Positions 963 through 1,298 of a stretch of DNA of 15,612 nucleotides are shown in pieces. The notes under the pieces are model-generated. The model ran no database searches. It was not told the origin of the DNA and was given only the letters and a program-made list of their open reading frames with translations. The stretch lies in the IMG/VR virus record IMGVR_UViG_2778261247_000017; one strand, written 5' to 3'. Source of the DNA: a virus (taxonomy: Duplodnaviria > Heunggongvirae > Uroviricota > Caudoviricetes). The translations under genes and the position numbers were made by a program. Each line of letters starts with the position of its first letter. Positions within the stretch are counted from its first letter, which is position 1.

Positions 963-1298
963 TAATTTGTTACTGTGCCACTCAAGGGCAATATCTTTGA
1001 AGGTGTTGTTTAACTGCGTTTCCCGGGCAATCTTTTCCTCTCGCTTCACTTCCATCAGATCGATTCCCCCAGAGATACCTCTTTTAGCTTCTTCAAGTTT
1101 TGCAGGAGCATCAGCTAAGGTGACCTCAGGATACACACCTAGTGCTAACAGCTTCTCTTTACCAGCTACACGATACTTGAGACGCCAATATTCTCCTCCA
1201 CCAGGTTTTACCAGGAGGTACAGACCACCACCATCAGCCAACTTGTAAGCCTTCTCTTTTGGCTTGGCAGTGTCTATTTGACGGGCATTGAGTTTCAC
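963..1298 (-). pseudogene. truncated N-terminal fragment (about 112 codons) of a P4-family tyrosine integrase
   Basis: Roughly 336 bp at about 91 percent identity, by eye, to the 5' end of the full integrase gene at 15277-15612. Same GTG start context (GTGAAACTCAATGCCCGTCAAATAGAC). The frame stops at 960, one codon after homology ends; 11 amino-acid differences over 112 residues. Confidence 0.8.

Follow-up and report, generated by a model that had tools for sequence, protein, structure and literature searches.

The stretch of viral DNA analyzed here (IMG/VR record IMGVR_UViG_2778261247_000017; 15,612 nt, hereinafter the window) carries two copies of the 5' end of an integrase gene, at 963-1298 and 15277-15612. 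Both lie on the minus strand, and the start-to-start distance between them is 14,314 bp (14,312-14,324 bp, depending on the alignment block, in the chromosome of Escherichia coli IMT5155). The question raised by this locus is whether such a repeat marks the borders of a mobile element, serves as a route for its deletion, or is left by successive insertions at one site. The reading that we consider by far the most probable (about 0.9) is that the left copy is the decayed integrase stub of the vat islet, that a thrW satellite lies between this stub and the tRNA gene, and that the repeat is a by-product of tandem accretion.

The window corresponds to the thrW-proA hot spot of the E. coli APEC strains IMT5155 and DE17. 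Across its 15.6 kb, a single mismatch and two 1-bp indels separate it from the IMT5155 chromosome, and DE17 matches it at 100% over the two stretches tested. The differences from the IMT5155 RefSeq sequence (locus L001 below) include those near positions 7225 and 13546; such assembly differences may affect several genes annotated as frameshifted in IMT5155. The order in the window orientation is yagU, an integrase fragment, IS66, vat, vatX, the truncated integrase gene (int'), a 14.3-kb segment ending in the intact integrase gene (int), 166 bp, thrW and proA; in IMT5155, thrW and yagU are about 23 kb apart. No tRNA or other RNA family was found in the window by ARAGORN and by a scan at the Rfam gathering thresholds; ARAGORN finds no tRNA because thrW begins approximately 165 nt past the right edge. 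The features of the window are listed below (strand in parentheses where assigned).

1..525 (+): vatX, MarR-family regulator of vat (RefSeq annotation of the IMT5155 region; PMC6956023, PMC6592367)
526..959: AT-rich spacer, about 29% GC, with the int' truncation breakpoint at its right end, about 955-960 (composition profile, alignments)
960..1298 (-): int', remnant of a P4-family integrase gene (5' part only), 112 codons and TAA (Pfam, PGAP pseudogene)
1299..1452: relic int-proximal att arm and int upstream region (alignments, motif map)
1453..1468: displaced thrW 3' end, TGGTG-CGATAATAGGA, forming attR, the satellite's far att core
1469..1600: satellite far att arm; TACCCCCAA occurs twice in direct orientation (1531-1539, 1543-1551)
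1469..15612 (-): body of the 14.3-kb putative PICI-type satellite, continuing for about 183 nt past the window to the core in thrW
2153-3645 (-): cargo, DUF4747 pair
4451-4987: weakly TerS-like protein
5625-5912: PerC
5909-6439: ProQ/FinO
7668..9482 (-): D5-type primase-helicase, the replication protein of the satellite (Pfam D5_N, DUF5906, Pox_D5; PHROG 864 DNA primase, E = 1e-196)
13129..13326 (-): alpA, AlpA-family regulator/excisionase (Pfam Phage_AlpA, E = 2.4e-19; PHROG excisionase families)
14398..15612 (-): intact P4-family tyrosine integrase, 404 aa (Pfam Arm-DNA-bind_3, Phage_int_M, Phage_integrase)

Pairwise alignment of 963-1298 with 15277-15612, which had been proposed as a check, yields 314 identical positions out of 336 with no gaps (93.5%, 22 mismatches; blastn E = 2.5e-142). 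Thus the repeat of about 336 bp noticed in the preliminary description is real, and the homology is indeed lost abruptly at about 955-960, the left end of the left copy. The identity is 93.5% rather than the suggested 91%, and the true length is about 509 bp. The whole repeat occupies 960-1468 in the left copy and extends into the 3' end of thrW in the right one (L001 35272-35793), with 475 of the 509 aligned positions identical (~93%), one 12-bp indel and one 1-bp indel. It spans the int 5' end, the int upstream arm and the last 16-17 nt of thrW, an extension that is invisible within the window, since the latter ends exactly at the integrase start codon. The left fragment does not continue as an intact integrase left of 963: its 112-codon open reading frame (963-1298) is directly followed by TAA at 960-962.

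The occurrence of the left copy was analyzed using a synthetic empty site (window 1-1457 joined to thrW and proA, 2,276 nt), which was searched in 5,426 complete E. coli genomes. The junction is contiguous in 332 of them, with the stub directly abutting thrW. At least 40 of these empty sites are 100% identical, including those of S88, IHE3034, APEC O18, PMV-1 and the type strain ATCC 11775; CFT073, Nissle 1917 and ATCC 25922 likewise have the empty configuration, and the spacer sequence 526-959 is found in all empty-site strains. The compact thrW-to-yagU islet of S88 comprises int', vatX and vat together with IS1 debris and an integrase pseudogene that has no detectable similarity to the integrase studied here.

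The stub itself is present in about 540 of the 5,426 genomes, and hence about 200 of them have an insertion between the stub and thrW. The occupants of this position include a 16.6-kb element with methyltransferase/DUF262/HEPN cargo in MS8345, the published satellite EcCIMP1 in MP1 and, in strain 536, the large island PAI III536, inserted between thrW and int'-vatX-vat. PAI III536 has different integrases at both ends (L015 8943-10963, L016 1820-3064), and therefore several integrase families use thrW, all of them leaving the relic in place. The region between yagU and proA/thrW is known as a conserved site of vat/vatX islands (PMC6592367, PMC6956023). The left copy had been interpreted as the remnant of a second, related island that integrated in tandem at the same tRNA and was later deleted. 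The remnant indeed belongs to an older thrW-specific island, but this island was not lost: vatX (1-525) and vat, which is located past the left edge of the window, are still joined to the stub, and the int'-vatX-vat unit is fixed in the approximately 540 genomes. The vat islet is immobile, as the rest of its integrase and any distal att site are gone.

In IMT5155 (L001 13628-19875) and VTB96815v (L023 5778-12067), vat is 5'-truncated by an insertion of the IS66 family (ISCro1). Due to this truncation, the vacuolating autotransporter is probably not made in this lineage. As the rare insertion is common to both strains, they are close relatives.

The 14.3-kb segment encodes a P4-family integrase, AlpA, an Ant-type antirepressor, an Icd-like protein, the D5-type primase-helicase, PerC and a ProQ/FinO-like protein, and further the weakly TerS-like small protein and, at its attR-proximal end, the DUF4747 pair. 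No clear structural or lysis protein was identified among 10 proteins compared with Pfam and nine compared with PHROGs (small open reading frames being partly covered), and the sole structural-type signal is the weak TerS-like N-terminus (E = 1.7e-6). Judging by this gene set (int, alpA, primase, no structural or lysis genes detected) and by its length of 14,325 bp, within the 10-20-kb range, the segment is assigned to the PICI-type phage satellites.

The intact integrase comprises 404 aa, with the GTG start at the last base of the window, and its codons 1-112 (15277-15612) form the right copy of the repeat. The PF13356, PF22022 and PF00589 domains all score above the cut-offs, and the catalytic motifs RTGELR and HGFRHT as well as the C-terminal Tyr are visible in the sequence. 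The first 336 nt of int show 99% nucleotide identity to the integrase genes of related elements from strains free of the vat islet. The complete element is found only in IMT5155 and DE17, and parts of this mosaic family are present in 2,213 of the 5,426 genomes.

One open reading frame of the segment (10720-12258, minus strand, 512 aa) is probably spurious. It has no Pfam match when taken in full, and two plus-strand genes of the YlcI/YnfO type overlap it; RefSeq calls only its last ~73 codons, as Icd-like.

The repeat does not bracket the element, as had been suggested: the left copy lies wholly outside and the right one inside, the real borders being the thrW-derived core. In particular, the attR core TGGTG-CGATAATAGGA (1453-1468) reproduces the 17 nt at the 3' end of thrW, TGGTGCCGATAATAGGA, except for one missing C, and the 10-bp repeat GATAATAGGA at 1459-1468 bounds the 14.3-kb element. 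This core has the properties of an att site, a tRNA 3' end repeated at both termini with one copy in the intact tRNA gene. The 336-bp repeat does not qualify as such, its left copy being already present in the 332 empty sites, beyond the border of the element. The related thrW elements of ARS-C301 and APEC E123, strains with neither the vat islet nor the stub, end at the 16-nt core, beyond which there is unrelated chromosome (the yagP/paoD side). As the relatives end at the core in stub-free strains, the stub is outside the element. The far arm (1469-1600) is conserved in related elements, both in E. coli and in other genera.

Moreover, an occupied and an unoccupied site can be compared in two close relatives. 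VTB96815v corresponds to IMT5155 minus L001 21469-35793 (14,325 bp), with flanks that are 99.97-100% identical. The identity is 100% up to the end of the left core, where the tRNA body follows. Therefore, the occupied and unoccupied states differ by a cut at the 10-bp GATAATAGGA and not inside the integrase repeat, and in this pair the element has been gained or lost precisely at the core. The same 10 bp are the reverse complement of TCCTATTATC, which was proposed as the EcCIMP1 core from sequenced circular junctions (PMC11773190).

One candidate for a circular attP was considered but does not count as proof. The IMG/VR contig L006 (12,914 bp) has identical 77-nt ends, and this repeat ends exactly at the att core. 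In contig L048 this integrase arm is coupled with another far arm, and therefore one or both of these contigs must contain a tandem junction. Identical terminal repeats can thus represent tandem satellite-satellite junctions and not circles.

The displaced thrW end lacks one C not in this element alone. The single-C attR (TGGTG-CGATAATAGGA) is observed at 57 of 61 junctions of the satellite family, counting L006, namely at all five E. coli loci examined, in seven of eight other species and at 45 of 47 metagenome junctions. The sequences compared were window 1453-1468, L001 35777-35793, L018-L023, L007-L014 and L024-L070. The single-C junctions come from E. coli, seven other named genera and metagenomes, and have more than 20 different chromosomal left flanks. 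At the thrW/attL side, CC is present in all ten loci that hold both ends.

An identical far arm is accompanied by CC in one host context and by C in two others, and hence the C-run is chromosomal and not element-borne, with the exchange occurring in the 10-bp core to the right of it. VTB96815v leads to the same placement: as it retains the attR-type single C, the exchange can be assigned to the last 10 bp, on the right-hand side of the C-run, rather than to the 509-bp repeat. The opposite assumption, that the single C is carried by the element and the exchange occurs at the extreme thrW 3' end, is excluded by the far arm found with both C and CC, and is also contradicted by VTB96815v and four other empty sites with the single C inside thrW.

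These five complete genomes with a single-C thrW are all empty sites; the stub is present in SCU-176 and VTB96815v, and the remaining three have the pao flank. ARAGORN calls a shortened tRNA at the single-C thrW. The first acceptor-stem pairs are identity elements for ThrRS, and the single-C allele is probably defective. The five genes look like excision scars; since every one of them belongs to an empty site, they are unlikely to stem from assembly errors.

The missing C of attR is not accounted for by simple conservative exchange with an intact tRNA gene. Given that the C-run is chromosomal and the exchange falls in the core, the functional 3' end of thrW at an occupied site comes from the satellite, whose excision would be expected to produce a thrW without one acceptor-stem G, which is the allele of the five empty-site genomes. 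It is conceivable, although we consider it rather doubtful, that the satellites systematically erode the displaced tRNA end, perhaps by slippage of integrase cleavage and religation at CC, and that satellite loss then breaks the tRNA. If this were true, losing the satellite would damage thrW, which would constitute a built-in cost of loss.

The alternative that survives best, albeit with a low probability, takes the two int 5' copies as the effective borders and RecA-dependent recombination between them as the real route of the 14.3-kb deletion. The substrate for RecA is certainly there (about 509 bp with 93% identity in direct orientation, including identical tracts of 66, 55, 55 and 47 bp), and the product would resemble an ordinary empty site. 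Still, a divergence of 7% strongly depresses recombination controlled by RecA and MutS. A chimera query, left-type at the breakpoint and right-type toward thrW, has best matches of 95.3-95.4% in the 5,426 genomes, which is the value of the pure left type, while the slightly better match in strain 2A is due to a lone SNP and not to a conversion tract. There is no sign of conversion in the copies themselves: the left one is 100% relic-type, as in the empty-site strains, and the right one is 99% satellite-type, similar to the integrases from relic-free strains, and thus no exchange between them has taken place. Finally, in VTB96815v the cut coincides with the 10-bp core and the single C of the attR type is preserved, which a crossover inside the repeat could not yield. 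The suggestion that the copies are a substrate for homologous recombination is thus acceptable in principle, as a rare event, but none of the 5,426 genomes contains a chimeric product.

The left copy has the appearance of a relic. The int' and intact int sequences are 93.5% identical at the nucleotide level and 90% identical at the amino-acid level. Pfam recognizes only Arm-DNA-bind_3 (PF13356, E = 9e-24) in int', the catalytic domain of P4-family integrases is absent from 960-1298, and PGAP already calls the stub an incomplete Arm-DNA-binding pseudogene. A tblastn search of the interval between yagU and thrW recovered no part of int' other than the 112 codons, and the small integrase pseudogene close to yagU showed no detectable similarity to int at E <= 1e-3. 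A search for a distal att core or a distal arm repeat belonging to the vat islet, allowing up to 3 mismatches, found neither. Scanning for promoters and terminators around int' gives no more sites than shuffled sequence does.

The first 336 nt of the relic are 93.5% identical to the IMT5155 integrase gene, 93.5-93.8% to those of ARS-C301 and E123, and 84-85% to the integrase genes of two remoter relatives. Polarization of the int'/int differences with two outgroups assigned 16 of the 22 to the relic branch, nine nonsynonymous and seven synonymous, compared to nine nonsynonymous and 32 synonymous ones between full-length integrases at greater divergence (Fisher p = 0.024). The int' replacements include R65P, R68L, P81L and A84V, at residues that are invariant in every full-length integrase.

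The relic arm (1299-1452) is homologous to the 166 bp between int and thrW and 100% identical to that of the empty-site strain S88. Its tandem TACCCCCAA pair is gone due to the 12-bp deletion and two substitutions. This motif has six exact copies in 42.6 kb, all within att arms (about 0.3 copies are expected by chance), and its repeats are probably arm-type binding sites of the integrase. In the satellite, the orientation is -,+,+,- in the int-proximal arm, the fourth copy having one mismatch, and +,+ in the far arm. The repeats of the relic and satellite arms lie at window 1299-1307, 1352-1360 and 1531-1551 and at L001 35611-35684. The excess of nonsynonymous changes together with the loss of the arm repeats indicates that the int' stub is decaying.

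The stub could also be seen as a domesticated protein consisting of the arm-binding domain only, which would be made from the integrase promoter that the stub has kept and would modulate integration or excision of incoming thrW satellites. The 112-codon frame is open, a GGAG ribosome-binding site is still present, the upstream region is 93% similar to the functional one, the Arm-DNA-bind_3 match is significant, and the stub is conserved in about 540 genomes. However, this conservation is explained by recent common ancestry within phylogroup B2, and the branch leading to int' has the 9:7 ratio and the changed invariant residues described above. Moreover, the own arm of the stub has no tandem repeat pair, and satellites integrate and, in MP1, excise normally beside it, which makes such a function very improbable.

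That the left copy was made by the integration itself (an insertion duplication) or is an assembly artefact, as the direct orientation of copies flanking most of the element might suggest, is refuted by its base-for-base presence in the 332 element-free genomes, and also by its presence beside quite different occupants (MS8345, 536, MP1), by the 34 differing positions and two indels between the copies, and by recurrence of the arrangement in the independent IMT5155 and DE17 assemblies.

Under the preferred reading, that of a decayed vat-islet stub with a satellite inserted between it and the tRNA, the integration hot spot at thrW (tRNA-Thr) would contain two generations of mobile DNA, one upon the other. 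The vat islet would represent the older generation, its integration module being reduced to the 112 codons of int', the att arm at 1299-1452 and the tRNA 3' end. In most vat-positive B2 strains, the stub lies directly against thrW. In the lineage of IMT5155 and DE17, the 14.3-kb satellite would later have been placed between thrW and the stub. Both integrases would come from one thrW-specific lineage, as carried by successive elements; this shared origin would be the reason why the int 5' ends and upstream arms are about 93% identical and form an apparent direct repeat. The order thrW, int, satellite, core, arm, int', vatX, vat is that of a tandem array in which the older unit has no distal att site. 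By analogy with EcCIMP1, we infer that the satellite integrates and excises through Int and AlpA at the 10-bp core GATAATAGGA, and besides this analogy such recombination is supported by the VTB96815v pair only.

The closest known system is EcCIMP1 of E. coli MP1 (PMC11773190), which resides at the same locus (proA-thrW ... yagU), the PICI lying between thrW and the stub in both cases. The adjacent island of about 7 kb is the same as well; it comprises MarR/vatX, vat and IS1 along with integrase pseudogenes, one of which is this very Arm-DNA-binding stub. The two elements share the core (TCCTATTATC, corresponding to GATAATAGGA) and the single-C attR, and their integrases match at 386 of 405 aligned positions, the stop codon included. 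The EcCIMP1 body, however, is different: it has 19,963 bp, a TOPRIM/DUF927 replication protein, phage-like ejection genes and two alpA genes, and outside int it shares with the IMT5155 element only short stretches that are 70-74% similar. EcCIMP1 needs int, alpA and its helper phage Kapi1 in order to excise and circularize, and it is transferred by transduction; the vat island adjoining it gave no excision product under any condition (PMC11773190).

The Gram-negative PICI EcCICFT073 (PMC6092414) resembles the IMT5155 element in having int, alpA and pri-rep, a length of about 15 kb, no structural or lysis genes detected and a specific att site. It differs in the att site used and in several accessory genes without a counterpart.

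Precedents for tandem accretion are PAI III536 at thrW and the islands at the asn tDNAs of K. pneumoniae (PMC4891358), where, as here, successive insertions at one tRNA 3' end push older decaying elements and att/int remnants outward. Nothing essential distinguishes the present case from them, the older unit here being a 112-codon stub with its cargo. Hence the arrangement is ordinary tandem accretion of an already described kind: the satellite-stub-vatX-vat order at thrW has already been described in MP1, knowledge of the island goes back to 2003, and the stub is annotated by PGAP. The satellite of IMT5155 and DE17 is an uncharacterized element within a known family.

The VAT-PAI of avian E. 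coli (Parreira and Gyles 2003), as it is cited in PMC6956023 and PMC6592367, is an island of about 22 kb located between proA and yagU, at thrW, and carries vat and vatX (ORF26), similarly to the IMT5155 thrW locus. It had been described as a single pathogenicity island, whereas the locus analyzed here is a composite. The classical island of avian and extraintestinal E. coli comprises an immobile vat/vatX islet with a dead integrase stub and, between this stub and the tRNA gene, an exchangeable phage satellite or another island. Delimitation of islands by integrase repeats gives wrong borders here, the true ones being the 10-17-bp tRNA core.

The attR-proximal end of these elements is a variable cargo slot. 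In the window it is occupied by the DUF4747 protein and its 199-aa partner (2153-3645, minus strand), for which, together with two other proteins, PADLOC reports no match. The same slot contains the methyltransferase/DUF262/HEPN trio in MS8345 (L003 21833-24931) and GapS1 in APEC E123 (L005 4775-6373), and it looks like a hot spot of anti-phage defence.
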